NCBI RefSeq assembly: GCF_016127575.1
Contig: NZ_CP066019.1
Coordinates: 750,001-782,000 of the forward strand
Source of the DNA: Cupriavidus necator
GTDB taxonomy: Bacteria; Pseudomonadota; Gammaproteobacteria; Burkholderiales; Burkholderiaceae
Length of the DNA stretch: 32,000 bases
Direction of reading: 5' to 3'
In this document: in pieces, positions 1 through 29,231 of the stretch
How the letters are laid out: each line of letters opens with the position of its first letter
Position numbering within the stretch: the stretch's first letter is position 1
Position numbers and translations under genes: made by a program
The notes under the pieces: model-generated
Told to the model about the DNA's origin: nothing
Seen by the model: the letters and a program-made list of their open reading frames with translations, nothing else
Databases searched by the model: none

Positions 1-405
1 GTGGAATTTGGCGAGACCGGCACGCTGTGGCTGCGCCTGGCGATTCCGTACCGCGCCAGCGTCGGCCCCGGCGGCCCGTTCGGCATCGTCGGCATGGCCA
101 CGCCGGTGGATGAAGACCACTGCATGGTGTTCTTCTGGCGTACCCGCCACGTGCAGGGCTGGGAGCGCGACGTGTGGCGCTTCCTGTACCGCAACCGCCT
201 GGAGCAGCTGCACTGGGACGTGCTGGAGCAGGACCGCGTGGTGCTGGAAATGATGGCCCCGAACGCGCGCGACCACGAGATGCTGTACCAGCACGACGCC
301 GGCATTACCCGCGTGCGCCGCCTGCTCAAGCGCCGCGCCGAGCAGGAAGTGGCCGACGAGCCCGTCGCCATGCTGCAACCCGCCGGAGCCGCCAGCCATG
401 CCTGA
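1..405 (+). CDS. C-terminal fragment of an aromatic-ring-hydroxylating (Rieske-type, phthalate/VanA-like family) oxygenase alpha subunit; the 5' end lies outside the window
   Basis: Frame 1 is open from base 1 to TGA at 403-405. The translation (PVDEDHCMVFFW..., WDVLEQDRVVLE) resembles the C-terminal catalytic domain of class IA oxygenase alpha subunits. The Rieske domain itself is not in the window. The stop overlaps the next start (ATGCCTGA). Confidence 0.6.
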   Translation: MEFGETGTLWLRLAIPYRASVGPGGPFGIVGMATPVDEDHCMVFFWRTRHVQGWERDVWRFLYRNRLEQLHWDVLEQDRVVLEMMAPNARDHEMLYQHDAGITRVRRLLKRRAEQEVADEPVAMLQPAGAASHA

Positions 406-1171
406 GGCAAACACCAACAACACGCTGCTGGCCGGGCGCAAGGTGCTGGTCACCGGCGCCGCGCGCGGACTGGGCCTGGCCTTCGTCAAGGCGCTGGCCG
501 AAGCCGGCGCCACCGTGGCCATGGCCGACATCCTGGCCGAGCGCCTGCAGCAGGAAGCCGACGCCCTGCGCGCCCGCGGCCTGAAGGTGGTGCCGGTCAC
601 GCTGGACCTGTCCGATCCGGCCTCGGTGCAGGCTTGCGCCGAGGCCGCGGTCAAGGCGCTGGGCGGGCTCGACGGCCTGGTCAACAACGCCGCCGTGACG
701 GATTCCGGCGGCCGTGACGCCGCCGCCATCGACATCGCCACCTGGGACCGCGTGATGAACGTCAACGTGCGCGGCACCTGGCTGATGACCACCGCCTGCC
801 TGCCGGCGCTGCGCGCCAGCGGCCGCGGCGCCATCGTCAACCTGGCTTCGGACACGCCGCTGTGGGGCGCGCCCAACCTGCTTGCCTACGTGGCGAGCAA
901 GAGCGCCATCATCGGCATGACCCGTTCGCTGGCGCGTGAACTGGGCAAGGACCAGATCACGGTGAACGCCGTGGCCCCGGGCCTGACGCTGGTGGAAGCC
1001 ACCGAATACGTGCCGCAGCACCGGCACGACCTGTACCGCGAGCAGCGCGCGATCACGCGCGAGCAACTGCCCGACGATGTTTGCGGCGCGGTGCTGTTTG
1101 CACTGTCCGACCTCGCCCGTTTCGTGACCGGCCAGACGCTGGCGGTCAACGGCGGCTTTGTCATGCATTGA
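398..1171 (+). CDS. Short-chain dehydrogenase/reductase (SDR) family oxidoreductase
   Basis: 257 aa. N-terminal cofactor motif TGAARGLG, NNAA, catalytic YVASKSA (YxxxK). 8-nt overlap with the upstream gene. Confidence 0.9.
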   Translation: MPEANTNNTLLAGRKVLVTGAARGLGLAFVKALAEAGATVAMADILAERLQQEADALRARGLKVVPVTLDLSDPASVQACAEAAVKALGGLDGLVNNAAVTDSGGRDAAAIDIATWDRVMNVNVRGTWLMTTACLPALRASGRGAIVNLASDTPLWGAPNLLAYVASKSAIIGMTRSLARELGKDQITVNAVAPGLTLVEATEYVPQHRHDLYREQRAITREQLPDDVCGAVLFALSDLARFVTGQTLAVNGGFVMH

Positions 1172-1205: not shown

Positions 1206-1742
1206 ATGAGCGATCTTTCTCAACCGCAAAACATCAAGCGTTCCTGGGACCAGCCGGAGAACGCTTCGTTCGACCAATGGATGGAAAGCCGCGTGGCGCG
1301 CTTCTCCACGCGCAAGTACGACTGGGACGCGCTGAAGTTCCAGGCCGACTACGACCCCAAGTACCGCCGCGCGCAGATGCGCTACCTGGGCACCGGCGGC
1401 ACCGGCGTGGCCGCCGACACCAACACCGTGCCGAGCGAGCATTTCACCTTCTCCACCATGATCATCCCGGCCGGCCATGAAGGCCCGTCGCATATCCACA
1501 CCGACGTGGAAGAGGTGTTCTTCATCCTGCGCGGCAAGGTCAAGCTGATCTTGGAAAAGGACGGCGAGCGCTACGAGACCATCCTGACCGACCGCGACCT
1601 GGTCTCGGTGCCGCCGGGCGTCTACCGCGAGGAAATCAACATCGGCGAGGAAGACGCGCTGATGTGCGTGATGCTGGGCGCGAAGAAGCCGATCACGCCG
1701 ACCTACCCGCCCGAGCATCCGCTGACGAAGATCAAGCGCTGA
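1206..1742 (+). CDS. Cupin-domain protein (about 178 aa)
   Basis: ATG at 1206 is preceded by GAAGGAA (1194-1200). Cupin motif 1-like GHEGPSHIHTDVEEVFFILRG and motif 2-like VPPGVYREEIN. The 1158 start in the ORF track lacks an RBS. Confidence 0.75.
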   Translation: MSDLSQPQNIKRSWDQPENASFDQWMESRVARFSTRKYDWDALKFQADYDPKYRRAQMRYLGTGGTGVAADTNTVPSEHFTFSTMIIPAGHEGPSHIHTDVEEVFFILRGKVKLILEKDGERYETILTDRDLVSVPPGVYREEINIGEEDALMCVMLGAKKPITPTYPPEHPLTKIKR

Positions 1743-2635
1743 TGCCGGCGAACGTCCGTCAGCACGCATCCACCGAAGCCATGAGCAGCAACCCCATCCC
1801 GGCCACGTCCGCCGCCAGCGAAACCCCGGACAAGTACATCGTCCCGGGCCTGGAGCGCGGCCTGCGCCTGCTGAGCGAGTTCAGCAGCAAGGACCGCACC
1901 ATGTCGGCAGCGGAACTGGCGCGCCGCCTGAAGGTGCCGCGCTCGACCGTGTTCCGCCTGCTGGCCACGCTGGAAATGCTGGGCTTTGTCGAGCGCGCCG
2001 ATGGCGGCCGGGATTTCCGGCTGGGCATGGCCGTGCTGCGCCTGGGGTTTGAATACCTGGCGTCGCTGGAGCTGACCGAGCTGGGCCGCCCGCTGCTGGA
2101 GCGGCTGCGCGACGAGATCGGCTATCCCAGCAACCTGGTGGTGCGCGACGGGCGTTCGATCGTCTACGTGGCCAAGGCGGTGTCGCCGCGGCCGTTTGCC
2201 AGCTCGGTCAACGTCGGCACGCGCCTGCCCGCGCATGCCACGGTGCTGGGGCGCGTGCTGCTGGAAGACCTGTCGCTGGCGGAGCTGCGCACGCTGTACC
2301 CGGAGACGCAGCTTGCGGTGTTTTCCGAGAGCACGCCGCGCACCGTCGACGAGCTGCACGAGATCGTGCAGCGCGACCGCGAGCGCGGCTACGTGCTGCA
2401 GGAAGGCTTTTTCGAAGCCAGCATTTCCACCATCGCCGCGCCCGTGCGCGACCGCACCGGCAAGGTGGTGGCGGCGTTGGGCGCCACCATCCCCGCCGCG
2501 CATATCGATCCGGCGCAACTGGATGCGATGGTGGAGAAGGTCAGGGATACCGCGGGCGAGTTGTCGCGCCTGCTCGACTACCGCCCGTCGCTGCGCAGCA
2601 GCGGCGCCAAGGTGGTGAATCTGTATCGGGAGTGA
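1742..2635 (+). CDS. IclR-family transcriptional regulator (paralog A), embedded in the operon
   Basis: wHTH segment SAAELARRLKVPRSTVFRLLATLEMLGFV followed by an IclR effector domain. ATG at 1742 overlaps the cupin stop (TGATG). An alternative ATG at 1781 (MSSNPIP) is possible. Confidence 0.88.
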   Translation: MPANVRQHASTEAMSSNPIPATSAASETPDKYIVPGLERGLRLLSEFSSKDRTMSAAELARRLKVPRSTVFRLLATLEMLGFVERADGGRDFRLGMAVLRLGFEYLASLELTELGRPLLERLRDEIGYPSNLVVRDGRSIVYVAKAVSPRPFASSVNVGTRLPAHATVLGRVLLEDLSLAELRTLYPETQLAVFSESTPRTVDELHEIVQRDRERGYVLQEGFFEASISTIAAPVRDRTGKVVAALGATIPAAHIDPAQLDAMVEKVRDTAGELSRLLDYRPSLRSSGAKVVNLYRE

Positions 2636-2640
2636 GGACA

Positions 2641-3444
2641 ATGTCCATGATTGAACTCGGCGGCAAGGTTGCCGTCGTCACCGGCGGGTCCTCCGGCATC
2701 GGGCTGGCGACCGTCGAGCTGCTGCTCGAAGCGGGCGCCGCCGTGGCCATGTGCGGCCGCGACGAGAACCGACTGCGCAGCGCCGAAGCGCAGCTGCGCG
2801 AGAAATTCCCCGGGTGCCGGCTCCATGCCGCCACCTGCGACGTGCTCAAGCCTGAACAGGTCGCCGCCTTTGCCGCTGCCGTGCAGGCCACGCTGGGCAA
2901 CGTCGACATGCTGGTCAACAACGCCGGCCAGGGCCGTGTCTCCACCTTCGCCAACACCGAGGACGCGGCCTGGATGGAAGAACTGCAGCTCAAGTTCTTC
3001 TCCGTGATCCACCCGACGCGCGCGTTCCTGCCGCAGCTTGAGAAGTCAGGCCAGGGCGCCATCGTCTGCGTCAACTCGCTGCTGGCGCAGCAGCCGGAGC
3101 CGCACATGGTGGCGACTTCCGCCGCGCGTGCCGGCGTGCTCAACCTGGTGCGCTCGATGGCCACCGAGTTTGCGCCCAAGGGCGTCCGCGTCAACGGCAT
3201 CCTGATCGGCCTGGTCGAATCGGGCCAGTGGCGCCGCCGCTTCGAGGCGCGCCCTGAAGCAGACCGCCACCTGGACTGGGCCGCATGGACCGCGCGCCTG
3301 GCCCAGCAGAAACATATTCCCCTTGGCCGCCTGGGCCTGCCGGTCGAGGCAGCCCGCGCCATCCTGTTCCTTGCCTCGCCGTTGTCTTCGTACACCACGG
3401 GCAGCCATATCGATATCTCCGGAGGACACTCCCGTCATGCCTAA
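2641..3444 (+). CDS. SDR family oxidoreductase
   Basis: VTGGSSGIG cofactor motif, NNAG, SDR fold length. ATG at 2641 is preceded by GGGAG. The GTG at 2632 is less likely. Confidence 0.9.
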   Translation: MSMIELGGKVAVVTGGSSGIGLATVELLLEAGAAVAMCGRDENRLRSAEAQLREKFPGCRLHAATCDVLKPEQVAAFAAAVQATLGNVDMLVNNAGQGRVSTFANTEDAAWMEELQLKFFSVIHPTRAFLPQLEKSGQGAIVCVNSLLAQQPEPHMVATSAARAGVLNLVRSMATEFAPKGVRVNGILIGLVESGQWRRRFEARPEADRHLDWAAWTARLAQQKHIPLGRLGLPVEAARAILFLASPLSSYTTGSHIDISGGHSRHA

Positions 3445-5152
3445 TCAACAACAGTACGAGCAACAGCAGGTCACCGTCGGTTGCGCCATCACGGCGTTTC
3501 TCGAGCAGTGCGGCGTCAAGGCCGCCTTCGGCGTGATCTCGATCCACAATATGCCGATCCTCGACGCCATGGGCGAGCGCGGCAAGATCCGCTTCGTGCC
3601 GGCGCGCGGCGAAGCGGGCGGCACCAATATGGCCGATGCCTATGCCCGCACCACCGGTGGCCTGGGCGTGTGCCTGACCAGCACCGGCACCGCCGCGGGC
3701 AACGCCGCCGGCGCCATGGTCGAAGCGCTGACCGCCGGCACGCCGATGCTGCATATCACCGGCCAGATCGAAACGCCTTACCTGGACCAGAGCCTCGCCT
3801 ACATCCACGAAGCGCCGGACCAGCTCACCATGCTCAAGGCCGTGTCCAAGGCCGCCTTCCGCATCCGCAGCGCCGACACCGCCATCAGCACCATCAAGCT
3901 GGCCGTGCAGACCGCACTGACGGCGCCGACCGGCCCGGTCAGCGTGGAGATCCCCATCGACATCCAGGCCGCGCTGATCGAGATGCCGGCCGACCTGCAG
4001 CCGCTGCCGGTGCCGCAGCACGTGCCGTCGGCACATGCGCTGGACGCGCTGGCCGAGCGCCTGGCCAAGGCCAAGCGCCCGCTGCTGTGGCTGGGCGGCG
4101 GTGCGCGCCACGCCAGCAAGCAGGTGCAGCGCCTGCTGGACCTGGGCTTCGGCGTGGTCACCAGCACGCAAGGCCGCGGCATCGTGCCGGAAGACGATCC
4201 CCGTTCGCTGGGCGCCTACAACCTGCATAAGCCGGTCGAGGCCTTCTACCAGACCTGCGACGCGATGCTGGTGGTGGGCTCGCGCCTGCGCGGCAATGAA
4301 ACCCTGAAGTACGAACTGAAGCTGCCGCGCCCGCTGCTGCGCATCGACGCCGACCCGGCCGCCGAAGGCCGCTGCTACCTGAGCGACTACTTTGTCAGCG
4401 GCGACGCCGCGCTGGCGCTGGACGCCCTGGCGGATCGGCTTGAAAAGCGCATGCAGATCGACCCGGCCTTCGCCGCCGACCTGCGCCGCGCCCATGACAC
4501 CGCCGTCAACAGCCTGGTCGACGGCCTGGGCCCGTACTCGGCGCTGGTGCAGGCGCTGCAGGGCGCGGTCGGCCGCAGCTTCAACTGGGTGCGCGACGTG
4601 ACCGTGTCGAACAGCACCTGGGGCAACCGCCATCTGCGCATCTTCGATTCGCGTGCCGGCGTGCATGCGCTGGGCGGCGGCATCGGCCAGGGCCTGGCGA
4701 TGGGCATCGGCGCCGCGATCGGTGCTGCGGCGACCGCTTCGGGCAAGAAGACCTTCACGCTGGCCGGCGACGGCGGTTTTATCCTGAACCTGGGCGAACT
4801 GGCCACCGCGGTGCAGGAACGCGCCGACATGGTGATCGTGCTGATGAACGACAAGGGCTACGGCGTGATCAAGAACATCCAGGACGCCCAGTACGGCGGC
4901 CGCCGCCACTACGTGGACCTGCATACCCCGGACTACGCCACGCTGGCCAAGTCGCTGTCGCTGCGCCATGCGCGCGTGAGCAACCTGGCCGAGGTCGGCG
5001 CCGCGCTGGAAGCGGCCACGGTCGAGTCGGGCCCGTTCCTGCTGGAGATCGACATGCTGTCGATCGGTTCCTTCAAGACCATCTTCGCCGGCCCCCCGGT
5101 GAACAAGGACAACGAAGAGCCGGCGCGCGAACAAACCACTGTCACCGCCTGA
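3437..5152 (+). CDS. Thiamine-diphosphate-dependent enzyme (acetolactate synthase / benzoylformate decarboxylase superfamily), 571 aa
   Basis: N-terminal PYR domain (GVISIHNMPILDAM, ARGEAGGTNMADAYAR). C-terminal ThDP motif GDGGFILNLGELATAVQERADMVIVLMNDKGYG. ATG at 3437 overlaps the SDR stop (ATGCCTAA). The upstream extension to 3323 lies inside the SDR gene. Confidence 0.9.
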   Translation: MPNQQQYEQQQVTVGCAITAFLEQCGVKAAFGVISIHNMPILDAMGERGKIRFVPARGEAGGTNMADAYARTTGGLGVCLTSTGTAAGNAAGAMVEALTAGTPMLHITGQIETPYLDQSLAYIHEAPDQLTMLKAVSKAAFRIRSADTAISTIKLAVQTALTAPTGPVSVEIPIDIQAALIEMPADLQPLPVPQHVPSAHALDALAERLAKAKRPLLWLGGGARHASKQVQRLLDLGFGVVTSTQGRGIVPEDDPRSLGAYNLHKPVEAFYQTCDAMLVVGSRLRGNETLKYELKLPRPLLRIDADPAAEGRCYLSDYFVSGDAALALDALADRLEKRMQIDPAFAADLRRAHDTAVNSLVDGLGPYSALVQALQGAVGRSFNWVRDVTVSNSTWGNRHLRIFDSRAGVHALGGGIGQGLAMGIGAAIGAAATASGKKTFTLAGDGGFILNLGELATAVQERADMVIVLMNDKGYGVIKNIQDAQYGGRRHYVDLHTPDYATLAKSLSLRHARVSNLAEVGAALEAATVESGPFLLEIDMLSIGSFKTIFAGPPVNKDNEEPAREQTTVTA

Positions 5153-5164
5153 GGGAGACCGGAG

Positions 5165-5965
5165 ATGCTGCATGTGTCCATGGTTGGCTGCGGCGCGATC
5201 GGCCGCGGCGTGATGGAATTGCTCAAGAGCGATCCCGAGGTGGTGTTCGACGTGGTGATCGTGCCGGAGCACACGATGGACGAGGCCCGCGACGCGGTCA
5301 CCGCGCTGGCGCCGGGCGCCCGCGTGGCGACGCACCTGGACGACCAGCGTCCCGACCTGCTGGTCGAGTGCGCCGGCCACCATGCGCTGGAAGAGCACAT
5401 CGTGCCGGCGCTGGAACGCGGCATCCCGTGCATGGTGGTGTCGGTGGGCGCGCTGTCCGAGCCCGGCATGGCCGAGCGGCTGGAAGCGGCCGCGCGCCGC
5501 GGCGGCACCCAGGTGCAGCTGTTGTCAGGTGCGATCGGCGCGATCGATGCGCTGGCCGCGGCGCGTGTCGGCGGGCTGGACGAAGTCATCTACACCGGCC
5601 GCAAGCCGGCTCGCGCCTGGGCCGGCACGCCGGCCGAGCAGCTCTTCGACCTGGATGCGCTGACCGAGGCGACCGTGATCTTCGAAGGCACGGCCCGCGA
5701 CGCGGCGCGTCTGTATCCCAAGAACGCCAACGTGGCCGCCACGGTGTCGCTGGCAGGCTTGGGGCTGGACCGCACCTCGGTCAAGCTGCTGGCCGACCCG
5801 CATGCGGTGGAGAACGTGCACCACGTGGAAGCGCGCGGCGCCTTCGGCGGCTTCGAGCTGACGATGCGCGGCAAGCCGCTGGCGGCCAATCCCAAGACTT
5901 CCGCGCTGACCGTGTTCAGCGTGGTGCGCGCACTGGGAAACCGGGCGCACGCGGTATCGATCTAG
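5165..5965 (+). CDS. L-aspartate dehydrogenase family protein (NadX-like, DUF108), 266 aa
   Basis: MLHVSMVGCGAIGRGV Rossmann start. The C-terminal half (LYPKNANVAATVSLAGLGLD, GKPLAANPKTSALTVFSVVRALGN) matches my recollection of characterised Pseudomonas/Ralstonia AspDH sequences. GAGGGAG RBS upstream. Confidence 0.88.
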   Translation: MLHVSMVGCGAIGRGVMELLKSDPEVVFDVVIVPEHTMDEARDAVTALAPGARVATHLDDQRPDLLVECAGHHALEEHIVPALERGIPCMVVSVGALSEPGMAERLEAAARRGGTQVQLLSGAIGAIDALAAARVGGLDEVIYTGRKPARAWAGTPAEQLFDLDALTEATVIFEGTARDAARLYPKNANVAATVSLAGLGLDRTSVKLLADPHAVENVHHVEARGAFGGFELTMRGKPLAANPKTSALTVFSVVRALGNRAHAVSI

Positions 5966-6006
5966 TCCCGGCAGCCAACGCCCCACAGACTTAGCAGGCA
6001 ACGACA

Positions 6007-7485
6007 ATGAAGACGCAAGAAGTACTCCCCATCTGCATCGCGGGCGAATGGCGCCTGGGGACCGGCGACCGCTATGGCACCCGCTATCCGGCTACCGGCG
6101 AAGTGGTGGCAGAACTGAACGCCGCCAGCCTGGCGGACGTGGAAGAAGCGGTGCAGGGCGCCCATCAGGCCTTCCTCACCAGCGGCTGGGCCCAACGCAA
6201 GCCGCATGAGCGCGCCGCCGTGCTGTACCGCGTGGCCGAGCTGATCCGCGCCCAGGGCGAGCAGCTGGCCCAGCGCCAGCGCCTGGACAACGGCAAGCCG
6301 ATCAGCGAGACGCGCGCCCTGGTGGCCAGCGCCGCCGGCACCTTCCAGTTCTTTGCCGCCGCCTGCGAGACGCTGGAAGAAACCATCACGCCGCAGCGCG
6401 GCGACTGCCTGACCATGAGCGTGTACGAGCCGATGGGCGTGGTTGCGGCGATCACGCCGTGGAACTCGCCGATCGCCAGCGAGGCGCAGAAGATGGCGCC
6501 CGCGCTCGCCGCCGGCAACGCCGTGGTGGTCAAGCCCGCCGAGGTCACGCCGCTGATGGCGCTGGAGCTGGCGCGCATCTGCGAAGAGGCCGGCGTGCCC
6601 AAGGGCCTGCTCAGCGTGCTGCCCGGCAAGGGTTCGGTCATCGGCGACGCCATCACCAAGCATCCGCTGGTGCGCCGCGTGTCGTTCACCGGCGGCACCA
6701 CCACCGGCAAGCACATCGCCCATATCGCCGCCGACAAGATGATGCCGGTGTCGCTGGAACTGGGCGGCAAGTCGCCGACCATGGTGTTCGACGATGCCGA
6801 CCTGGACCACGCGGTCAACGGCGTGCTGTACGGCATCTTCAGCTCGTCGGGCGAGTCGTGCATCGCCGGCTCGCGCCTGTTCGTGGCGCGCTCGCAGTAC
6901 GAGGCCTTTATCGACCGCCTGGCCGCGGGCGCCGCGCACCTGCGCGTGGGCGACCCCGCCGACGAGCGTACCCAGATGGGCCCGCTGATTACCGACCGCC
7001 ACCGCGACAGCATCGAGTCGTACGTGGCCGCCGGCGTGGAAGAGGGCGGCCAGCTGCGCACCGGCGGCCTGCGCCCAGACGTGGCCGGCCTGCCCAACGG
7101 CTATTTCTACACGCCGACCATCATCGAAGGGCTGGATAACAACGCCCGCATCTGCCAGGAAGAGATCTTCGGGCCGGTGCTGGTCGCAATCCCGTTCGAC
7201 GACGAGGATGACCTGATCGCGCAGGCCAACGACAGCGTCTATGCGCTTGCCGCGGGCATCTGGACGCGCGACTACAAGCGCGCCTGGCGCGTGGCACGCG
7301 CCGTGCAGGCGGGCAATGTGTGGATCAACACCTACAAGCAATTCTCGATCGCGACGCCGTTCGGCGGCTGGCGCGACAGCGGCCTGGGCCGCGAGAAGGG
7401 GCGGCTTGGCATCCTGCAGTACATGGAGCAGAAGAGCGTGTACTGGGGTCTGAACGAACAACCGCTGCCGTGGGCCAACCACTGA
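6007..7485 (+). CDS. NAD(P)-dependent aldehyde dehydrogenase, 492 aa
   Basis: ALDH signatures: ELGGKSP (catalytic Glu) and GESCIAGSR (catalytic Cys). Typical length. Confidence 0.93.
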   Translation: MKTQEVLPICIAGEWRLGTGDRYGTRYPATGEVVAELNAASLADVEEAVQGAHQAFLTSGWAQRKPHERAAVLYRVAELIRAQGEQLAQRQRLDNGKPISETRALVASAAGTFQFFAAACETLEETITPQRGDCLTMSVYEPMGVVAAITPWNSPIASEAQKMAPALAAGNAVVVKPAEVTPLMALELARICEEAGVPKGLLSVLPGKGSVIGDAITKHPLVRRVSFTGGTTTGKHIAHIAADKMMPVSLELGGKSPTMVFDDADLDHAVNGVLYGIFSSSGESCIAGSRLFVARSQYEAFIDRLAAGAAHLRVGDPADERTQMGPLITDRHRDSIESYVAAGVEEGGQLRTGGLRPDVAGLPNGYFYTPTIIEGLDNNARICQEEIFGPVLVAIPFDDEDDLIAQANDSVYALAAGIWTRDYKRAWRVARAVQAGNVWINTYKQFSIATPFGGWRDSGLGREKGRLGILQYMEQKSVYWGLNEQPLPWANH

Positions 7486-7508: not shown

Positions 7509-8483
7509 ATGATCAAGGTATTGGGGATCGACGAGATCGTCTACGGCGCGGATGACTTTGACGCCTGCCGTGGCTTTTTCACCGACTGGGGCCTGGCCAT
7601 CAAGCGCGACGATGCGCAGGGCCTGGATTTTGAAACGCTGAACGGCTGCCGCGTGCTGGTGCGCCGCATCGACGATGCCACGCTGCCGCCCGCGATCGAG
7701 GCCGGCCCGACGCTGCGCGAAGTGGTGTGGGGCGTCGAGTCACAGGCCTCGCTGGACCAGCTCGCCAAGGCAATCGCTGATGCACCGGGCTTCGTGAAGC
7801 AAGGCGAGGGCGATACGCTGCGCGTGGGCTGCACCGATCCGAACGGCCTGGCCGTGCGTTTCCAGGTCACCCGCAAGCATGACGTGCAGGTCGAATGCGC
7901 GCTGATGAACACGTGGAACGACAAGCCGCGCCTGAACCAGCGCAGCCCGATCTACGACCATGCCACCCCGATCGAAGTGGGCCACGTGGTGTTCTTCGTC
8001 AAGGACGTCAAGGCCACTGAGCGCTTCTATGTCGAGAAGTTCGGCTTCGTGCCGTCGGACCGCTACCCGGACCGCGGCGCCTTCCTGCGCTGCACGCCCG
8101 AAGGCGGCCACCACGACCTGTTCCTGCTGCAGCTGCCGGAACCGAAGAGCGGCCTGAATCACGTCGCCTTCACCGTGCGCGACATCCACGAAGTCTTCGG
8201 CGGCGGCATGCATGTCTCGCGCAAGGGCTGGGATACGCAGCTCGGCCCGGGCCGGCACCCGATCTCGTCGGCCTACTTCTGGTACTTCAAGAACCCGGCC
8301 GGCGGCCTGATCGAGTACTACGCCGACGAAGACCAGCTCGACGAACACTGGGAGCCGCGCGCTTTCGAGCCGGGCCCGACCATGTTCGCCGAATGGGCGA
8401 TCGAAGGCGGCATCGACGGCAACACCCGCCGCCAGAAGAACGCGGGCGGACCGGCAGGCAAGTTCCTGACCGAGAAGCGGTAA
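7509..8483 (+). CDS. Two-domain VOC-family protein, type I extradiol ring-cleavage dioxygenase-like, 324 aa
   Basis: ATG at 7509 follows GGAGAG. Candidate metal ligands in the expected order: GHVVFFV, NHVAFTV, and GRHPISSAYFWYFKNPAGGLIEYY. Confidence 0.8.
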   Translation: MIKVLGIDEIVYGADDFDACRGFFTDWGLAIKRDDAQGLDFETLNGCRVLVRRIDDATLPPAIEAGPTLREVVWGVESQASLDQLAKAIADAPGFVKQGEGDTLRVGCTDPNGLAVRFQVTRKHDVQVECALMNTWNDKPRLNQRSPIYDHATPIEVGHVVFFVKDVKATERFYVEKFGFVPSDRYPDRGAFLRCTPEGGHHDLFLLQLPEPKSGLNHVAFTVRDIHEVFGGGMHVSRKGWDTQLGPGRHPISSAYFWYFKNPAGGLIEYYADEDQLDEHWEPRAFEPGPTMFAEWAIEGGIDGNTRRQKNAGGPAGKFLTEKR

Positions 8484-8509
8484 GTCAGCAGCAATCGAAG
8501 GAAGCAGCA

Positions 8510-9466
8510 ATGAGTGCCCACCAGTCCCTGACCCTGCGCGTCCACGCCATGCGCTATGAAGCGCGCGGCGTGGTCAGCATCGAACTGCAAGATCCCGAAG
8601 GGAAGACCCTGCCCGAGTACAGCCCGGGCGCCCATATCGACCTGCACCTGGGCAACGGCCTGGTGCGCAGCTACTCGCTGTGCGGCGCGCCCGAAGCGCG
8701 CCGGCGCTATACCGTGGGCGTGCTGCTGGACCGCGGCAGCCGCGGCGGTTCGCGCTACGTGCATGAGCAGCTGCGCGTGGGCGCCACGCTGACCGTGGGG
8801 GCGCCGCGCAACAACTTCGAGCTGGACGAAAGCGCCGCGCACACCGTGCTGGTCGCCGGCGGCATCGGCGTCACGCCGATCGTCTGCATGGCGCGCCGCC
8901 TGGCCGAGCTGGGCAGGTCGTTCACGCTGATCTACTGCGCCCGTTCGCGTGCCGAGGCCGCATTCGTCGAACAGCTGTCGGCCCATGGCGATGCCGTGCA
9001 CTTTCACTTCGACGACGAGGCCGGCGTGCCGCCGGACCTGAACGCGATGCTGGCCGGCCAGGAGGTGCAGACGCACTTCTACTGCTGCGGCCCCGGTCCG
9101 ATGCTGAAGGCGTTCGAGGCTGCCTGCGAAGCGCATGGCTACCCGAACGTGCATATCGAGCGCTTTGCCGCCGACCCCTCGACCGAGGCGGTGCAGGAGG
9201 GCGAGTACACCGTGTCGCTGTCGCGCACCGGCACCACCGTCAAGGTGCCGTCCGGCAAGTCGCTGCTGGACGCACTGCTCGATGCCGGCGTGCAGATGGA
9301 CTACAGCTGCCGCGAAGGCGTGTGCGGCTCGTGCGAGACCGCGGTGCTGGAAGGTTGCCCCGATCATCGCGACAGCGTGCTCAGCAACAGCGAGCGCGCC
9401 AGCAACAAGACCATGATGGTGTGCGTGTCGGGGTGCAAGGGCAGCAAGCTGGTGCTGGACTTGTAA
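8510..9466 (+). CDS. Phthalate-dioxygenase-reductase (PDR/VanB)-type oxidoreductase: flavin-binding, NAD-binding and C-terminal plant-type 2Fe-2S domains
   Basis: ATG at 8510 follows GAAGGAAG. RSYSL flavin motif, VAGGIGVTP NAD motif, CREGVCGSCE...MMVCVS cluster motif. 318 aa. Confidence 0.9.
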   Translation: MSAHQSLTLRVHAMRYEARGVVSIELQDPEGKTLPEYSPGAHIDLHLGNGLVRSYSLCGAPEARRRYTVGVLLDRGSRGGSRYVHEQLRVGATLTVGAPRNNFELDESAAHTVLVAGGIGVTPIVCMARRLAELGRSFTLIYCARSRAEAAFVEQLSAHGDAVHFHFDDEAGVPPDLNAMLAGQEVQTHFYCCGPGPMLKAFEAACEAHGYPNVHIERFAADPSTEAVQEGEYTVSLSRTGTTVKVPSGKSLLDALLDAGVQMDYSCREGVCGSCETAVLEGCPDHRDSVLSNSERASNKTMMVCVSGCKGSKLVLDL

Positions 9467-9483: not shown

Positions 9484-9521
9484 CCCCTCTCCCGCGCGCG
9501 GGAGAGGGGCGGGAGAGAGGG
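9484..9521. repeat. REP-like palindromic element, copy 1 (perfect 12-bp-arm hairpin plus a degenerate third arm)
   Basis: CCCCTCTCCCGC-GC-GCGGGAGAGGGG at 9484-9509, followed by GGGAGAGAGGGC. Starts 18 nt after the reductase stop. Confidence 0.8.
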
Positions 9522-9613: not shown

Positions 9614-9654
9614 TGCCCTCTCCCCCGGCCCCTCTCCCGCAAGCGGGAGAGGGG
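9614..9654. repeat. REP-like palindromic element, copy 2, inverted relative to copy 1
   Basis: GCCCTCTCCCCC-GG-CCCCTCTCCCGC-AA-GCGGGAGAGGGG. Its reverse complement aligns with copy 1 arm for arm. Confidence 0.8.
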
Positions 9655-9687: not shown

Positions 9688-11148
9688 GTGTTAACCCAGA
9701 GACAAGACGCAGCGTCCCCCGGCGCACCGGTGGCCGCCACCGCAGGTATCGTGACCACGGCCGACAGCGCCGGCCAGAGCGCGGCGGCGGCCCGCAGCGG
9801 CCCGCTCACGCGCGGCAATATCGTTGCCCGCATCGAGCGCATGCCGGGCAATGCCATGCATATCCGCGCCCGGCTGCTGATCGGCCTGGCCACCTTCTTC
9901 GATGGCTTCGACGTCATCGCCATCGCAGCCACGCTGCCGCTGCTGATCGCGCAGTGGTCGCTGACGCCGGGCCAGATCGGCGTGCTGATCGCTGCGCCTT
10001 CGGTCGGCCAGCTGGTCGGCGCGCTGCTGTTCCCGGGGCTGGCCGAGCGCTTCGGCCGGCTGCGCTCGATCGGCTGGAGCGCGGGCATCATCGGCCTGAT
10101 GAGCATTGCCTGCGGCTTCGCGCCGTCGTTCGAGATCTTCTTGCTGCTGCGCATCGTGCAGGGCCTCGGCCTTGGCGGTGAGCTGCCGGTGGCCGCCACC
10201 TATATCAACGAAGTCACGCGCGCGCATGGCCGTGGGCGCTTCGTGCTGCTGTACGAGGTGGTGTTCCCGATCGGCCTGATGGTGTCCAACGGCGTTGGCG
10301 CCTGGCTGGTGCCGCACTACGGCTGGGAGGTGATGTACTTCATCGGCGGCGTGCCGCTGGTGCTGTTCTTCATCCTGCGCCGCGTGATCCCGGAATCGCC
10401 ACGCTGGCTGGCGGAGAAAGGCCGTCTTGAAGAAGCCGATGCCGCACTGCGTGCGTTCGAGGCGCGCGCCAAGGATCCGCTGCCGCCGCCGGTCAATGCC
10501 GGCAGCTACGACCGCATGACCCAGCACCCGCGCCGGCGCGTGCGTGACCTGGTCAGCAAGGCCTACCTCGGCCGCACGCTGGCGGTATGGATGCTGTGGG
10601 CAACCTGCGGCTTTATCCAGTACGGGCTGTCGACGTGGCTGCCCACGGTCTACAAGACCGTCTACCACGCGCCGCTGCAGCTGGCGCTGAACCTTGCCGC
10701 CGGCGCCTCGGTGCTGGGCGTGGTCGGCTCGCTGGTGTGCGCGATGATTGTCGACAAGGTGGGCCGCAAGCCGGTGATCAACGTGTCGTTCCTGCTGTGC
10801 GCGCTGTCGCTGGTGCTGGCGGGGGTGTTCCACGCTTCGAACGTGTATGTGGTAGCGACCTTCTGCGCGCTGGCGATGGGCTTCCTGGCCAGCGGCTTTA
10901 TCACCGCCTATGTTTACACGCCCGAGTTGTACCCGACCAGCGTCCGCGCGATGGGCTGCGGCCTGGGCGGCGCCTGGCTGAAGCTGGCGGCGATCTTCGC
11001 GCCTGGCCTGATCGCCAGCACCATTGGCAGCGGCAACCTCAGCGTCGCCTTCTTCGCGCTGTCCGTGGTGCCGGCGCTGGCGGCTGTCACCGTGCATTTC
11101 CTTGGCATCGAGACCAAGGGGCGGGTGCTGGAAGAACTGGAGGTCTGA
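9688..11148 (+). CDS. MFS transporter (sugar-porter / metabolite:H+ symporter-like)
   Basis: Multiple TM segments. ERFGR loop motif, PESPRWL after TM6, ETKGRVLEELE at the C-terminus. The conserved N-terminal IVARIERMP segment lies upstream of ATG 9841, so I prefer GTG 9688, just downstream of the REP pair. The start is uncertain. The 9541 start would read through the REP. Confidence 0.8.
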   Translation: MLTQRQDAASPGAPVAATAGIVTTADSAGQSAAAARSGPLTRGNIVARIERMPGNAMHIRARLLIGLATFFDGFDVIAIAATLPLLIAQWSLTPGQIGVLIAAPSVGQLVGALLFPGLAERFGRLRSIGWSAGIIGLMSIACGFAPSFEIFLLLRIVQGLGLGGELPVAATYINEVTRAHGRGRFVLLYEVVFPIGLMVSNGVGAWLVPHYGWEVMYFIGGVPLVLFFILRRVIPESPRWLAEKGRLEEADAALRAFEARAKDPLPPPVNAGSYDRMTQHPRRRVRDLVSKAYLGRTLAVWMLWATCGFIQYGLSTWLPTVYKTVYHAPLQLALNLAAGASVLGVVGSLVCAMIVDKVGRKPVINVSFLLCALSLVLAGVFHASNVYVVATFCALAMGFLASGFITAYVYTPELYPTSVRAMGCGLGGAWLKLAAIFAPGLIASTIGSGNLSVAFFALSVVPALAAVTVHFLGIETKGRVLEELEV

Positions 11149-11176: not shown

Positions 11177-11207
11177 GCCGCCCCGCAATCCGGGTGCGGC
11201 ACTTTTT
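11177..11207 (+). terminator. Intrinsic terminator after the MFS gene
   Basis: 9-bp GC stem with one bulge (GCCGCCCCG / CGGGTGCGGC), loop CAATC, followed by ACTTTTT. Confidence 0.55.
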
Positions 11208-11209: not shown

Positions 11210-11728
11210 TTATTCCTGCGTGCGCAACAGCTTGCGCAGCCCCTGGTAAACCGCTTCCCGCTCCTCCGGCGACAACTGCCGGATCACCTGCGCCTGCCCC
11301 CGCCGCGCCAGCGGCATCACCTGGTCGTGCAGCGCGGCACCGGCTTCACTGATCGCGCAGATCAGCTTCTTGCGCGGCGTGTTGCCGGCTGAGGTCAGCC
11401 GCACCAATCCCCGATCCTCCAGCAGCCGCAGCGTGCGGCTCACCAGCGCCTTGTCCGAGGTCGACTGGGTCACCAGCTCGGCAAACGGCAGTTCGCGCGC
11501 GTGCGCCAGCAGCGCCAGGATGCGCCACTCCGGCACGGTCAGGCCGAACTGTTCCGCATAGGGCTTGGTCACCGTGCTGCGCAGCGCGGTGACCAGCTGG
11601 CTCAGCATCGTGGTCAGGAAATTGTCGACGGTCAGGCCGCTGCCGGCCTCGTCGAGGTCGGTCCACGGGCTGGTGTTGTCGGTGTCTGGCGCGGGCTGGC
11701 CGTTGGCGGGCGCGGCGTCACGGGGCAT
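11210..11728 (-). CDS. MarR-family transcriptional regulator, 172 aa
   Basis: wHTH region LTVPEWRILALLAHARELPFAELVTQSTSDKALVSRTLRLLEDRGLV. Divergent from the Bug/molybdenum hydroxylase operon. Confidence 0.9.
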   Translation of the reverse strand: MPRDAAPANGQPAPDTDNTSPWTDLDEAGSGLTVDNFLTTMLSQLVTALRSTVTKPYAEQFGLTVPEWRILALLAHARELPFAELVTQSTSDKALVSRTLRLLEDRGLVRLTSAGNTPRKKLICAISEAGAALHDQVMPLARRGQAQVIRQLSPEEREAVYQGLRKLLRTQE

Positions 11729-12050
11729 GCGTTCCTCTTGGTCAGGGTCTGCCGGCCGCGGAGTTCGGGCCGGTTGGCGGGCCCGATTGTCTCACAGGCG
11801 CTCGCCAATTCCGCCACCGGGTGTCGCTTTCGTGTCATGCAAGAGAATTAAGCAAACTAAATCATGTCAATAGGTATTTAACGTAAGTTGAGTTGTCAAT
11901 ATTGGCGACATAGGATTATCAATGTTCCTGGTGTGAACGTACGTTTTACTAATAAAACAACCGAAAGTGTTGTAACCCGAGCCAACCCTGTTTTCGCGGT
12001 GCGCACAACAGCCCACTCCAACCGCGAATGCGCCCCCACAGGAGCTGTTG
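11729..12050. promoter_or_regulatory. Divergent MarR / Bug-operon control region with an AT-rich core and repeated motifs
   Basis: Marked GC drop at about 11835-11970. AACGTAAGTT (11880-11889) and the perfect palindrome AACGTACGTT (11936-11945). TGTCAATATTGGCGACA (11894-11910). TCAAT occurs three times (11867, 11896, 11918). AGGAG RBS at 12040-12044. Confidence 0.5.
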
Positions 12051-13043
12051 ATGAGACACGAACGCCCCCGCCGCCTTTTCCTTGCAGCCACTGCCATGGC
12101 CGCGCTTGCGCTTGCCGCGGGCAGCGCGCTGGCCACCGCCGCGTATCCGGCCAAGACCGTGACCATGGTCGTGGCCTATCCGCCTGGCGGCGACACCGAC
12201 GCCATGGCCCGGCTCTATGCCGACAAGCTGTCGGCGCGCCTGAAGCAGCCGGTCATCGTCGAGAACCGCCCCGGTGCCGGCGGCGTGGTCGGCGCCAGCT
12301 TCGTCAGCCGCGCGCCGGCGGACGGCTACACGCTGCTGTACACGCCCAACCCTTTCACGCTGGCGCCGATGGTGCTCAAGCTGGCGCCGTCGGCCAGCTA
12401 TGACCCGCTGCACGGCTTCACCCCCGTGATCCAGACCGCGGTGCAGGCGGTGCTGCTGGTGGCCAACCCGCAGGCCGGCATCAAGACCGTCGGCGAGATG
12501 ATTGCCGTGGCCAGGGGCGGCAAGACGCTGACCTATGGCAGCCCGGGCGCGGGTTCGCCGATGCACATCGCCGGCGAGATGCTCAACCGCGCCGCGGGCG
12601 TGAAGATCCAGCACGTGCCGTACAAGGGCGTGGCGCCGGCGGTCAACGACGTGGTGGCGGGGCACGTGAACTTTGCCTACGTCACGCTGGGTCCGGTGGC
12701 GCAGTACATCAACACCGGCCGGCTGATCCCGCTGGCGATCACGGACGCAAAGCGCTCGCCGCTGCTGCCCAACGTGCCGACGCTGGCCGAGCTCGGCTAC
12801 AAGGACGTGGTGGTCGGCGCCTGGCATGGCGTGATGGCGCCCAAGGGCACGCCGCCCGAGGTGGTCAAGGTGCTGAACCAGCAGCTCAACGACGTGCTGC
12901 GCCTGCCGGACGTGACCGAGAAGATGGCCACCTTCGGCGCCAGCCCGGTGGGCGGCGCCCCGGCCGCGCTGGAAAAGGTCAACGCGGCCGACTACGAGCG
13001 GCTGGGCAAGGTGATCCGCGACCTCGCGATCACGGCGGAATGA
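12051..13043 (+). CDS. Bug-family (TctC-like) periplasmic solute-binding receptor of tripartite tricarboxylate transporters
   Basis: Signal peptide with RRLFLAATAMAALALAAGSALA. Family motifs YPPGGDTD, ENRPGAGG, SPGAGSPMHIAGE, VPYKG. 330 aa. Confidence 0.9.
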   Translation: MRHERPRRLFLAATAMAALALAAGSALATAAYPAKTVTMVVAYPPGGDTDAMARLYADKLSARLKQPVIVENRPGAGGVVGASFVSRAPADGYTLLYTPNPFTLAPMVLKLAPSASYDPLHGFTPVIQTAVQAVLLVANPQAGIKTVGEMIAVARGGKTLTYGSPGAGSPMHIAGEMLNRAAGVKIQHVPYKGVAPAVNDVVAGHVNFAYVTLGPVAQYINTGRLIPLAITDAKRSPLLPNVPTLAELGYKDVVVGAWHGVMAPKGTPPEVVKVLNQQLNDVLRLPDVTEKMATFGASPVGGAPAALEKVNAADYERLGKVIRDLAITAE

Positions 13044-13092
13044 CGCAGGGCAGCGCATCGCGTTCATGCAACCAGACAAGCAGGAGGCCGGC

Positions 13093-16243: not shown

Positions 16244-16252
16244 GGAATCCCC

Positions 16253-16729
16253 ATGAACCAAGTCAGCATCGAACTCACCGTCAACGGCGAGGAACACCAG
16301 GTGGAGGTGCCGGCGCGGCGCCTGCTGTCCGACCTGCTGCGCGACGACCTGAACCTGACCGGCACCAAGCGTGGCTGCGAGACCGGCATCTGCGGCGCCT
16401 GCTCCGTGCTGGTCGACGGCGAGGTGGTCAAGTCCTGCCTGATGCTCGCCGTGCAGGCGCGCGGGCGCCATGTGATGACGGTGGAGGGGCTGGCCGCCGA
16501 CGGCCAGCTGCATCCGCTGCAGCAGTGCTTCATGGACAACGGCGGGCTGCAGTGCGGCTATTGCACGCCGGGCTTCCTGATGGCCTCGTGCGCGCTGCTT
16601 GCCAATAACCCCAACCCGACCGAAGACGAAGTCCGGCACGGCCTGAACGGCAACCTGTGCCGCTGCACCGGCTATGTCGGCATCGTTGAATCGGTCCTGT
16701 CCGCCGCGGAGAAAATGCGTGGAAATTGA
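16253..16729 (+). CDS. [2Fe-2S]-binding small subunit of the molybdenum hydroxylase (CoxS-like)
   Basis: 158 aa. Two cluster motifs: GCETGICGACSV...C and CGYCTPGF...CRCTGY. Confidence 0.93.
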   Translation: MNQVSIELTVNGEEHQVEVPARRLLSDLLRDDLNLTGTKRGCETGICGACSVLVDGEVVKSCLMLAVQARGRHVMTVEGLAADGQLHPLQQCFMDNGGLQCGYCTPGFLMASCALLANNPNPTEDEVRHGLNGNLCRCTGYVGIVESVLSAAEKMRGN

Positions 16730-17456: not shown

Positions 17457-17558
17457 GCGGAGCCAGGGCGGGGTCTGCCGGCAATACGGGTACCCTACGG
17501 GGTGCAGGCGTGATATATGAGAGCGTTACGCCAAGACCGAATATTGCAGAGACAGACC

Positions 17559-29227: not shown

Positions 29228-29231
29228 GGCC

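Follow-up and report, generated by a model that had tools for sequence, protein, structure and literature searches.

An L-Aspartate Dehydrogenase Gene of Cupriavidus necator Lies within a Conserved Aromatic Ring-Cleavage Operon That May Degrade Kynurenate or a Related N-Heteroaromatic Acid

We analyze here a 32,000-nucleotide stretch of Cupriavidus necator DNA (NCBI RefSeq assembly GCF_016127575.1, contig NZ_CP066019.1, positions 750,001 to 782,000 of the forward strand; hereafter, the window) and, within it, a cassette of four genes encoding a short-chain dehydrogenase/reductase (SDR2), a thiamine diphosphate (ThDP) enzyme, a predicted L-aspartate dehydrogenase (AspDH), and an aldehyde dehydrogenase (ALDH). 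A preliminary description of this DNA had read the cassette as a candidate route for shortening the carbon chain of an amino acid. We find instead that same-strand genes continue unbroken on both sides of the cassette, from position 1 to ~11148, and that the four genes make up the interior of a single operon with 11 or more genes. The cassette is very probably part of an aromatic ring-cleavage catabolic operon in which the ThDP enzyme and ALDH belong to a different sub-module from AspDH. The best explanation that we can offer, held with a little more doubt than confidence, is that this operon degrades an aromatic, probably N-heteroaromatic, carboxylic acid, with kynurenate as the preferred candidate.

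Organization of the Operon

All coordinates are window positions unless a locus is named. Genes were taken from the list of open reading frames (ORFs) and their translations, and domains were assigned by Pfam and NCBIfam profile searches. The window has a G+C content of ~69% and a nucleotide identity of ~85% to other Cupriavidus chromids. The order of the genes is Rieske-SDR1-cupin-IclR-SDR2-ThDP-AspDH-ALDH-VOC-PDR-MFS, unbroken and on the same strand, with gaps of -8 to +41 nt within the coding run (VOC, vicinal oxygen chelate; MFS, major facilitator superfamily):

1-405, plus strand: 3' end of the alpha subunit of a Rieske non-heme-iron oxygenase (VanA_C, 2e-07), cut by the window edge
398-1171, plus strand: SDR1 (adh_short, 2.9e-52), overlapping the Rieske gene by 8 nt; proposed cis-dihydrodiol dehydrogenase
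1206-1742, plus strand: cupin, a 178-aa monocupin (Cupin_2, 2.5e-11); proposed metal-dependent (di)oxygenase of the lower pathway
1742-2635, plus strand: IclR regulator (HTH_IclR and IclR_C); alternative start at 1781
2641-3444, plus strand: SDR2; alternative GTG start at 2632
3437-5152, plus strand: ThDP enzyme, overlapping SDR2 by 8 nt
5165-5965, plus strand: AspDH, after a 12-nt gap from the ThDP gene
6007-7485, plus strand: ALDH, after a 41-nt gap from the AspDH gene
7509-8483, plus strand: VOC two-domain protein (Glyoxalase domain), predicted type I extradiol dioxygenase
8510-9466, plus strand: PDR/VanB-type reductase (DmmA-like_N, NAD_binding_1, Fer2; flavin, NAD and plant-type 2Fe-2S)
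9484-9509 and 9629-9654: two REP-like perfect palindromes, CCCCTCTCCCGC and GCGGGAGAGGGG, inverted repeats in the PDR-MFS spacer
9688-11148, plus strand: MFS aromatic-acid/H+ symporter (MFS_1/Sugar_tr); start uncertain, GTG 9688 or ATG 9841

The coordinates of the four cassette genes, their overlap, and their gaps agree with those described previously, as judged from the ORF table and the translations. An IclR gene does lie directly upstream, as had been stated, and the reported overlap of its start with the preceding stop codon hinges on which start is chosen: ATG 1742 shares one base with TGA 1740-1742, while a second in-frame ATG at 1781 is the start chosen by RefSeq for the orthologue in C. 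pauculus. The best NCBIfam match of this regulator is the PcaR/PcaU/PobR subfamily, under the cut-off. All four cassette proteins match Pfam domains far beyond cut-off, and three of the four pass specific NCBIfam equivalogs, namely PRK07062 (SDR2), PRK07064 (ThDP enzyme), and PRK13303.1-2 (AspDH).

Taken together, the predicted genes mark this as an operon for aromatic ring hydroxylation and meta-cleavage. The PDR reductase, whose orthologues in relatives are annotated as "PDR/VanB family oxidoreductase", is proposed to be the electron donor of the Rieske oxygenase, and the best NCBIfam match of the MFS protein is TIGR00895, the aromatic acid/H+ symport family. A terminator-like hairpin at 11183-11199, after the MFS gene, is the sole one to fall just outside a gene in our promoter and terminator scan, the counts of which were no higher than chance across the window. 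We note also that the two palindromes create long spurious ORFs on both strands of the PDR-MFS spacer.

Conservation of the Operon across Genomes

Our sample was built on AspDH relatives with 62% identity or more, around which 80 genome loci were taken at species level, and 18 cluster proteins were scored against these loci by tblastn; nine enzymes were treated as partners of AspDH (SDR1, the cupin, an alpha/beta hydrolase, SDR2, the ThDP enzyme, ALDH, VOC, Rieske, and PDR). SDR2, the ThDP enzyme, and ALDH stand beside AspDH in 71 of the 80 loci, and all nine partners are found at most 10 kb from AspDH in 64; in the remaining seven cassette-bearing loci, the missing parts fall past the end of the contig or flank. 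The loci that deviate are all either cut-short contigs or reduced variants. Counted singly, SDR1 is present in 71 loci, the cupin in 75, ALDH in 73, and VOC in 71. Among the sufficiently long loci of this sample, not one carries the four-gene cassette alone.

The block is found in beta-, gamma-, and alphaproteobacteria. Its hosts are Cupriavidus, Ralstonia (including Ralstonia wenshanensis), Herbaspirillum, Undibacterium, many Pseudomonas (including the citronellolis/delhiensis group), Variovorax, Rhodoferax, Comamonas, Delftia, Acidovorax, Ramlibacter, Pusillimonas, Aromatoleum, Pseudoduganella, and, on a plasmid, the alphaproteobacterium Pseudosulfitobacter. The gene arrangement is far beyond chance, since the order recurs in 71/80 loci and in three classes, and we regard the existence of a conserved ring-cleavage operon of ~12 genes as settled. 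The neighborhood search with AspDH thus places the cassette well past close relatives, and the earlier suggestion of a conserved module of unknown role is borne out by this recurrence, with the module as part of a larger block.

Beyond the core enzymes, accessory genes encode a flavin adenine dinucleotide (FAD) monooxygenase (25/80 loci), a 105-aa protein (24/80), and a RidA imine deaminase (24/80), and an HTH_62 protein of 73-105 aa is encoded directly 5' of the Rieske gene in most clusters. The transporters are interchangeable and all of carboxylate types (NMT1-type ATP-binding cassette (ABC), TctC, or MFS). All-against-all clustering of the flank ORFs of ~85 loci returned, as recurrent extras, transporters, porins, regulators, RidA, the FAD monooxygenase, and the 105-aa protein.

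Several smaller features of individual loci may be recorded here. The 105-aa protein, which has no Pfam family, and RidA occur together in ~24 of the 80 clusters, where they flank the HTH_62-Rieske pair (for example at 14431-14748 and 16018-16455 of locus L003, a Pseudomonas locus). HTH_62 ("recombinase-like helix-turn-helix", PF20552) lies at 14750-14971 in L003, 15305-15541 in L006, 14973-15197 in L087, 15137-15367 in L088, and 2335-2571 in L089, and in the window its gene would fall just past the left edge. A methyl-accepting chemotaxis protein is encoded 3' of the cluster in Pseudoduganella aquatica, and an FRG-domain protein 3' of it in Ramlibacter, Aromatoleum, and two Pseudoduganella strains (coordinates for this group of genes: L087, 18575-20200; L006, 17554-18372; L088, 17479-18264; L055, 10806-11666).

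Split and Reduced Variants of the Block

The partners of AspDH can be read from genomes in which the block is split or reduced. In Comamonas terrae, C. guangdongensis, C. testosteroni, Delftia acidovorans, and D. tsuruhatensis, it is divided into two pieces, one with the order cupin-hydrolase-IclR-AspDH-TctC and the other with the order SDR1-IclR-SDR2-ThDP-ALDH-VOC-...-HTH62-Rieske. Three Pigmentiphaga genomes carry cupin-hydrolase-IclR-AspDH-TctC and nothing else of the block, an Achromobacter has only an NMT1-type ABC transporter, the cupin, the hydrolase, and AspDH, and one Pseudoduganella strain retains only IclR-AspDH. In the Ralstonia solanacearum complex (>100 records), the site of the whole block in R. 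wenshanensis (L091) is occupied by an intact orphan AspDH, a pattern that looks like a deletion that spared AspDH alone. On the megaplasmid of R. solanacearum T25, this orphan gene lies at 8003-8809 of locus L090, and its downstream cupin and sterol-desaturase neighbors are shared with R. wenshanensis.

We conclude that the block consists of an upper module, made up of Rieske/PDR, SDR1, VOC, SDR2, the ThDP enzyme, and ALDH, and a lower module, made up of the cupin, the hydrolase, and AspDH. Essentially the whole AspDH clade, at an identity of at least 62%, belongs to one catabolic operon, and the closest partners of AspDH in it are the cupin and the hydrolase. The route put forward in the preliminary description, in which AspDH would convert aspartate to oxaloacetate for decarboxylation to malonate semialdehyde and onward conversion to malonate or 3-hydroxypropionate, finds no support here: the ThDP enzyme and ALDH fall in a different module from AspDH, which contradicts a linear path from AspDH through the ThDP enzyme to ALDH. 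We regard this negative verdict as settled. The retention of AspDH by itself in R. solanacearum further points to a widely available metabolite (aspartate, iminoaspartate, or oxaloacetate), and not an exotic intermediate, as the substrate of AspDH, in keeping with the reported in vitro specificity of PA3505 and the Cupriavidus enzyme.

Properties of the Encoded Enzymes

The product of 5165-5965 is a predicted L-aspartate dehydrogenase of the clade of mesophilic Pseudomonas and Cupriavidus enzymes. It contains Asp_DH_C (2.8e-33) and NAD_binding_3 (3.1e-21), scores 519 bits against PRK13303.1-2 (cut-off 226), and is 98% identical to a C. lacunae protein and ~70% identical to Pseudomonas orthologues. 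Its motifs P-K-N-A-N-V-A-A-T, E-N-V-H-H, and N-P-K-T-S align with those of 2DC1, 1H2H, and 1J5P (A. fulgidus, T. maritima), the catalytic His included, and are invariant in eight diverse orthologues. Against the NadX model TIGR03855, it scores 162.4, under the cut-off of 206.55. Li and co-workers reportedly described, in 2011, NAD(P)-dependent oxidation of L-Asp and reductive amination of oxaloacetate for P. aeruginosa PA3505 and Cupriavidus orthologues. AspDHs from Pseudomonas, Cupriavidus, Delftia, and Comamonas have found use in biotechnology, and to our knowledge no physiological role is accepted for them.

The ThDP enzyme, which is 98% identical to a C. taiwanensis protein, contains all three of TPP_enzyme_N/M/C at 1e-24 to 1e-29. 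The only NCBIfam model that it passes is PRK07064, for which no function is named (939 bits vs a cut-off of 495). Its next matches lie below cut-off: PRK08266, likewise unnamed, at 296 bits, and the AruI-type 5-guanidino-2-oxopentanoate decarboxylase at 266 vs 500. The latter score, being well below its cut-off, makes the ThDP enzyme a separate equivalog. Among other named families, acetolactate synthase (ALS) models score 139-224 against cut-offs >500, glyoxylate carboligase and pyruvate oxidase are also below cut-off, and the Protein Data Bank (PDB) holds no close solved structure, the best match being to ALS at 8.6e-45. Membership of 2-hydroxyacyl-CoA lyase, MdlC, or cyclohexanedione hydrolase is likewise backed by neither an equivalog score nor a closely similar structure. 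The ALDH belongs to the NAD(P)-dependent class (Aldedh, 3.7e-170) and reaches no NCBIfam equivalog cut-off, with its best scores to betaine aldehyde dehydrogenase, HpaE, and StyD. We propose that the ThDP enzyme is a 2-oxo-acid decarboxylase and that ALDH oxidizes the aldehyde it would produce. The sequence from 2-oxo acid through aldehyde to acid that had been suggested for this pair is still the most likely chemistry, AruI-type enzymes being the nearest named family; what falls away is AspDH as the feeder of that sequence.

The two SDRs differ at their active sites. SDR1 has the canonical Ser...Tyr-x3-Lys site, with the ...AYvaSKgA... motif conserved in 78 orthologues. SDR2 (adh_short, 1.4e-50; PRK07062, 469 bits) departs from the classical SDR pattern: the Gly motif TGxxxGxG is kept, and Tyr-x3-Lys is replaced by T-S-A-A-R (HMVATSAARAG) in 79 of 79 orthologues. 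Over its full length, it matches at 5.6e-129 a solved orthologue from P. aeruginosa PAO1, "short chain oxidoreductase Q9HYA2" (PDB entries 3LF1/3LF2), to which no function is attached, and the paper on that structure is said to describe an "atypical catalytic center". The missing Tyr/Lys might be expected if SDR2 is not an ordinary alcohol/ketone dehydrogenase, and we propose that it reduces an enone side chain.

Both the VOC protein and the cupin look functional, since their metal and catalytic motifs are intact and the nearest structures of the cupin are dioxygenases. Aligned to homoprotocatechuate 2,3-dioxygenase (1F1X/1Q0C), with which its overall similarity is remote (1e-9), the VOC protein keeps the positions of H155, H200, H214, Y257, and E267, and thus the His/His/Glu metal ligands as well as the second-sphere His and Tyr; its best PDB match is 3B59, for which no function is assigned. 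No other protein of the block is as conserved as the cupin, which shows 73-96% identity across beta- and gammaproteobacteria. Its motif G-x5-H-x-H-x3-E is invariant in 81/81 sequences, and the usual His of motif 2 is replaced by Arg. Among solved structures, the Ni-quercetinase QueD comes nearest to the cupin, followed by weak matches to 3-hydroxyanthranilate and 5-nitrosalicylate dioxygenases. In C. pauculus and other genera, the Rieske orthologues are alpha-only proteins of ~343 aa with Rieske and VanA_C domains, of which the window holds only the VanA_C end; the nearest structures, DdmC, KshA, and phthalate dioxygenase, are of the VanA/phthalate class. We note that the PDB sequence searches with the ThDP, cupin, hydrolase, Rieske, and VOC proteins gave remote family-level matches only.

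Kynurenate as the Preferred Substrate

From the gene content, the conservation, the modular splits, and the intact catalytic motifs described above, we infer the substrate at decreasing levels of confidence. An AspDH in the core of the block, RidA among its accessories, and an adjoining molybdenum hydroxylase (described below) together point to a nitrogen heterocycle, and the substrate is somewhat more probably than otherwise an N-heteroaromatic 2-carboxylate, in which the carboxylate stands next to the ring nitrogen. Its narrower identification as kynurenate or a close relative is tentative.

The classical kynurenate ("quinoline") pathway of tryptophan breakdown was established in 1961-63 by work on cell extracts, and the classical utilizers of kynurenate are Delftia acidovorans, Comamonas testosteroni, fluorescent pseudomonads, and Cupriavidus. 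The named steps of the pathway are EC 1.14.99.2, EC 1.3.1.18 (7,8-dihydrodiol dehydrogenase), and EC 1.13.11.10 (7,8-dihydroxykynurenate 8,8a-dioxygenase), and a formylethyl intermediate belongs to it. An enzyme class is present for each of the six documented steps, and the six (Rieske with PDR, SDR1, VOC, SDR2, ThDP, and ALDH) are encoded together in 64-71 of the 80 loci, although such a match of classes is no proof of substrate. In the scheme that we propose, the Rieske oxygenase and PDR reductase would dihydroxylate the benzo ring in an NADH/O2-dependent reaction (kynurenate 7,8-hydroxylase), SDR1 would re-aromatize the dihydrodiol with NAD, and the VOC protein would carry out Fe(II) extradiol cleavage to 5-(3-carboxy-3-oxopropenyl)-4,6-dihydroxypicolinate. 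The atypical SDR2 would then reduce the side-chain double bond to give the oxopropyl compound, the ThDP enzyme would remove CO2 from this 2-oxo acid to leave an aldehyde, and ALDH would oxidize the latter to 5-(2-carboxyethyl)-4,6-dihydroxypicolinate.

For the residual ring, we propose a lower pathway. In the 4-hydroxy-2-pyridone tautomer, N1-C2(COOH)-C3-C4 would correspond to the skeleton of aspartate, and C5-C6 with the side chain to that of 2-oxoglutarate. The cupin, as a dioxygenase of the diketone-cleaving type, could attack C5 and break the C4-C5 bond, and the alpha/beta hydrolase could hydrolyze the resulting N-(2-oxoglutaryl) enamide to 2-oxoglutarate and iminoaspartate or 2-aminofumarate. 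AspDH would reduce iminoaspartate or 2-aminofumarate to L-aspartate, or else link the aspartate formed to oxaloacetate and NH4+; where RidA is present, hydrolysis to oxaloacetate and NH4+ would be an alternative. The accessory FAD hydroxylase could admit xanthurenate (8-hydroxykynurenate) and the molybdenum hydroxylase quinaldate, quinaldate 4-oxidoreductase being an enzyme that makes kynurenate. That the block is the missing kynurenate gene set in this full form, with an undescribed cupin-based pyridone-opening module and with AspDH as an iminoaspartate trap, is possible, and we regard it as doubtful.

The intermediates themselves are documented. In pathway-derived compound lists, 7,8-dihydroxykynurenate and 5-(3'-carboxy-3'-oxopropyl)-4,6-dihydroxypicolinate are named in one (PMC11364965) and 5-(2'-carboxyethyl)-4,6-dihydroxypicolinate in two others (PMC10543884, PMC13188826). 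According to Horibata et al. 1961, as cited in PMC11354673, pseudomonad extracts convert kynurenate to glutamate, alanine, and organic acids. Such end products fit a split into 2-oxoglutarate and aspartate or oxaloacetate.

A number of observations weigh against kynurenate and against the chemistry proposed for it. No kynurenine-formation genes (aminotransferase, kynA/B/U) recur in the flanks of the ~85 loci by ORF clustering. ALDH is also similar to dehydrogenases of ring-fission semialdehydes (HpaE, 477 bits). The alpha/beta hydrolase finds its relatives among enol-lactonases and meta-cleavage-product hydrolases, so that its immediate substrate could be the product of ring fission, as is usual in ordinary meta pathways. 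The Rieske oxygenase has no specific relationship to known quinoline oxygenases, with OxoO, a quinolone oxygenase, standing no nearer to it than others do, and members of the VanA/DdmC/KshA class are often mono-oxygenases or demethylases. An AlphaFold model of the cupin reaches only a moderate pLDDT of 65, and its Foldseek matches are generic cupins with quercetinase at the top, a fold match that is compatible with an oxygenase and undiagnostic. None of the Rieske, VOC, cupin, and ThDP proteins has a model that carries a name in NCBIfam (June 2026). Full-text literature on the PAO1 locus, on AspDH together with these enzymes, and on kynurenate degradation yielded no functional study, and the literature searched holds no experiment tying any of these genes to a substrate. 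Finally, cupin cleavage and the release of iminoaspartate in the lower module are of our own construction, and we know of no citable precedent for them.

Alternative Interpretations

Taking these points into account, the remaining alternatives to kynurenate, a monocyclic (amino)aromatic acid or another N-heteroaromatic acid, are serious rivals. In the first of these, which we consider unlikely, the operon would encode an ordinary meta-cleavage pathway for a monocyclic (amino)aromatic acid: Rieske and SDR1 would make a catechol, VOC would cleave it, ALDH would be the ring-fission semialdehyde dehydrogenase, and the hydrolase would act on the meta-cleavage product, while the ThDP enzyme would decarboxylate an oxalocrotonate-like 2-oxo acid and AspDH and RidA would handle an amino/imino dicarboxylate. 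This accommodates the resemblance of ALDH to HpaE and, at 414 bits, to 2-hydroxymuconic semialdehyde dehydrogenase, as well as the matches of the hydrolase to HsaD-, BphD-, and MhpC-type hydrolases, the PcaR-like regulator, and the PcaK/MhpT-like transporter; RidA-family deaminases, moreover, occur in aminophenol pathways. None of these scores reaches a family cut-off, however, and the ~85 loci contain no hydratase, aldolase, acylating dehydrogenase, tautomerase, or 4-oxalocrotonate decarboxylase. Such a pathway would also leave the strictly conserved cupin, and the cupin-hydrolase-AspDH module that stands alone in some genomes, without a role, and we know of no monocyclic meta pathway that includes a ThDP decarboxylase.

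The same architecture could instead serve another N-heteroaromatic carboxylate, such as xanthurenate, quinaldate, a quinoline or indole carboxylate, or a substituted picolinate, the upper module stripping a ring or side chain and the lower module yielding (imino)aspartate. We likewise judge this rather improbable. The cluster-level evidence applies to it equally, and the FAD hydroxylase in 25/80 loci, together with the molybdenum hydroxylase beside the Cupriavidus clusters, suggests several entry points; yet the sequence of side-chain reduction, decarboxylation, and oxidation is documented for kynurenate and for none of these compounds, and xanthurenate and quinaldate would converge on the kynurenate route anyway.

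The conversion of aspartate, or of an analogue, to malonate or 3-hydroxypropionate by AspDH, the ThDP enzyme, and ALDH or SDR is very unlikely. The adjacency of the ThDP, AspDH, and ALDH genes in 71/80 loci is as such a route would have it, and the enzyme classes fit a logic like that of AruH/AruI/KauB, but the cassette never occurs without ring-hydroxylating and ring-cleaving oxygenases, and AspDH stands apart from the ThDP enzyme and ALDH in Comamonas/Delftia and occurs without both in Pigmentiphaga, the Achromobacter, the Pseudoduganella strain, and the R. solanacearum complex. Decarboxylating oxaloacetate to an aldehyde would also be of no evident benefit, since oxaloacetate is already a central metabolite. 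Weaker still, and extremely improbable, is a NadX that supplies NadA with iminoaspartate for NAD synthesis and sits in the operon by coincidence: orthologues carry the RefSeq GO term "NAD biosynthetic process", and the orphan gene of R. solanacearum shows that AspDH is useful outside the cluster, but neither nadA nor nadC, whose absence had been remarked on before, is found anywhere in the 32 kb of the window or in the surveyed flanks, the TIGR03855 score is 162 vs a cut-off of 206.55, and ~70 of the 80 orthologues lie within the catabolic block, with its IclR control in common.

Three further candidates were dropped. Cysteate/sulfopyruvate chemistry (Xsc/ComDE-like) for AspDH and the ThDP enzyme is met by no sulfonate genes and by low scores to the SafD and Xsc models; the trigonelline, nicotinate, picolinate, and pyridoxine pathways have known enzyme sets that differ from this one; and a hydrolase acting on N-acyl-aspartate (auxin conjugate) would leave the cupin and the oxygenases unexplained.

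Counterpart in Pseudomonas aeruginosa PAO1

The preliminary description had pointed to a similar neighborhood around the characterized AspDH of P. aeruginosa, and this proves essentially right: SDR2 matches PAO1 Q9HYA2, and a layout of 6 + 11 genes fits the pseudomonad block. A 2025 paper refers to PA3498-PA3503 and PA3504-PA3514 as "two contiguous uncharacterized operons" of PAO1. The related Pseudomonas locus L003 has the same layout of 11 + 6 genes, with the order ABC transporter (three genes), SDR1, cupin, hydrolase, IclR, SDR2, ThDP, AspDH, ALDH, continuing with VOC, FAD monooxygenase, the 105-aa protein, (HTH_62), Rieske, RidA, and PDR. UniProt accessions presumably follow PAO1 genome order, which would make Q9HYA2 PA3507 and Q9HYA4 PA3505. 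The block is present in PAO1 and mostly absent from other P. aeruginosa strains. In the literature searched, no genes are assigned to the kynurenate pathway, and the JMP134 genome paper makes no mention of kynurenate.

Downstream Neighborhood

Beyond the operon, the window contains the following genes, identified by Pfam, up to position 21497:

11210-11728, minus strand: MarR
12048-13043: TctC
13066-15384 (large subunit), 15377-16243 (FAD subunit), 16253-16729 (2Fe-2S subunit), and 16674-17456 (CoxG): molybdenum hydroxylase
17517-18410: IclR paralogue, 85% identical to the operon IclR over both domains
18407-19465: second TctC
19452-20309, minus strand: third IclR, divergent, with the FAD monooxygenase
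20361-21497, minus strand: group-A FAD monooxygenase

The genes at 11210-21497 are probably associated feeder modules. Molybdenum hydroxylases hydroxylate N-heteroaromatics (nicotinate, picolinate, quinoline, quinaldine, and quinaldate) next to the nitrogen, and the equivalent position in C. pauculus (L001, 21184-23791) is taken by a molybdenum enzyme of two subunits. Given that the adjoining IclR is 85% identical to the operon IclR, the molybdenum hydroxylase and this paralogue suggest a co-regulated feeder reaction for an N-heteroaromatic substrate. The FAD monooxygenase resembles 3-hydroxybenzoate, salicylate, and urate hydroxylases, below cut-off, and is 65% identical to the in-cluster enzyme of Pseudomonas, Herbaspirillum, and Variovorax, which points to an accessory cluster gene relocated ~11 kb away in this genome. 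From 22073 to 31854 follows a separate CoA-dependent unit with no evident link to the operon. Two acyl-CoA dehydrogenase genes on the minus strand belong to this unit, together with genes for an AMP-forming ligase, a large MalT/LuxR-type regulator (26441-29227), a nitroreductase, and an enoyl-CoA hydratase fusion.

Relation to Known Pathways and Significance

Aromatic catabolic operons are known as a kind, and the composition of this one is unusual and uncharacterized. In the number and classes of its enzymes, the kynurenate pathway matches the cluster one-to-one, and its intermediates are on record; it differs in having no assigned genes in the literature searched and no documented step past 5-(2-carboxyethyl)-4,6-dihydroxypicolinate, which leaves the cupin, hydrolase, and AspDH without precedent. 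The upper meta pathways for naphthalene and biphenyl likewise co-encode a Rieske oxygenase, an SDR diol dehydrogenase, a type I extradiol dioxygenase, and an alpha/beta hydrolase. Unlike theirs, the oxygenase here is alpha-only, of the VanA/phthalate class, and served by a fused PDR reductase, and in place of a hydratase-aldolase, 2-hydroxypenta-2,4-dienoate (HPD) hydratase, aldolase, and acylating dehydrogenase, the block has the ThDP enzyme, the atypical SDR, the cupin, and AspDH. A ThDP decarboxylase followed by an ALDH is also found in AruH-AruI-KauB and in the mandelate enzymes MdlB-MdlC-MdlD; AruI differs not only by its score (266 vs 500) but also in that the 2-oxo acid here would most likely come from ring fission and not from amino-acid deamination.

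The L-aspartate dehydrogenases (EC 1.4.1.21) of T. maritima (TM1643/NadX) and A. fulgidus share the domain pair, the motifs, and the catalytic His of the present protein, which differs from them in being unlinked to nadA/nadC and in belonging to a catabolic operon with a cupin and a hydrolase. The characterized AspDH enzymes also include P. aeruginosa PA3505 and Cupriavidus/Ralstonia proteins. In nicotinate and picolinate catabolism, the NicX dioxygenase and the NicD alpha/beta-fold deformylase open the pyridine ring. There, as we propose for the lower module, an Fe(II) oxygenase opens a dihydroxypyridine and an alpha/beta-fold hydrolase follows; the small cupin is unrelated to NicX, however, and the product would be an imino/amino dicarboxylate for AspDH and not maleamate.

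If the full reading with AspDH as an iminoaspartate trap is true, the mesophilic AspDHs would gain a first physiological role, in trapping an imine during heterocycle catabolism. The operon is a concrete gene candidate for a 60-year-old orphan kynurenate pathway, whose three EC-numbered steps lack genes in the literature searched. Even with another substrate, the block would amount to a lower pathway of a new type, in which an atypical SDR, a ThDP decarboxylase, an ALDH, a cupin, and an AspDH are combined. Kynurenate, xanthurenate, and quinaldate are tryptophan metabolites of hosts, plants, and insects with signaling roles, and a widespread bacterial sink for them would be of interest to rhizosphere and host-microbe research.

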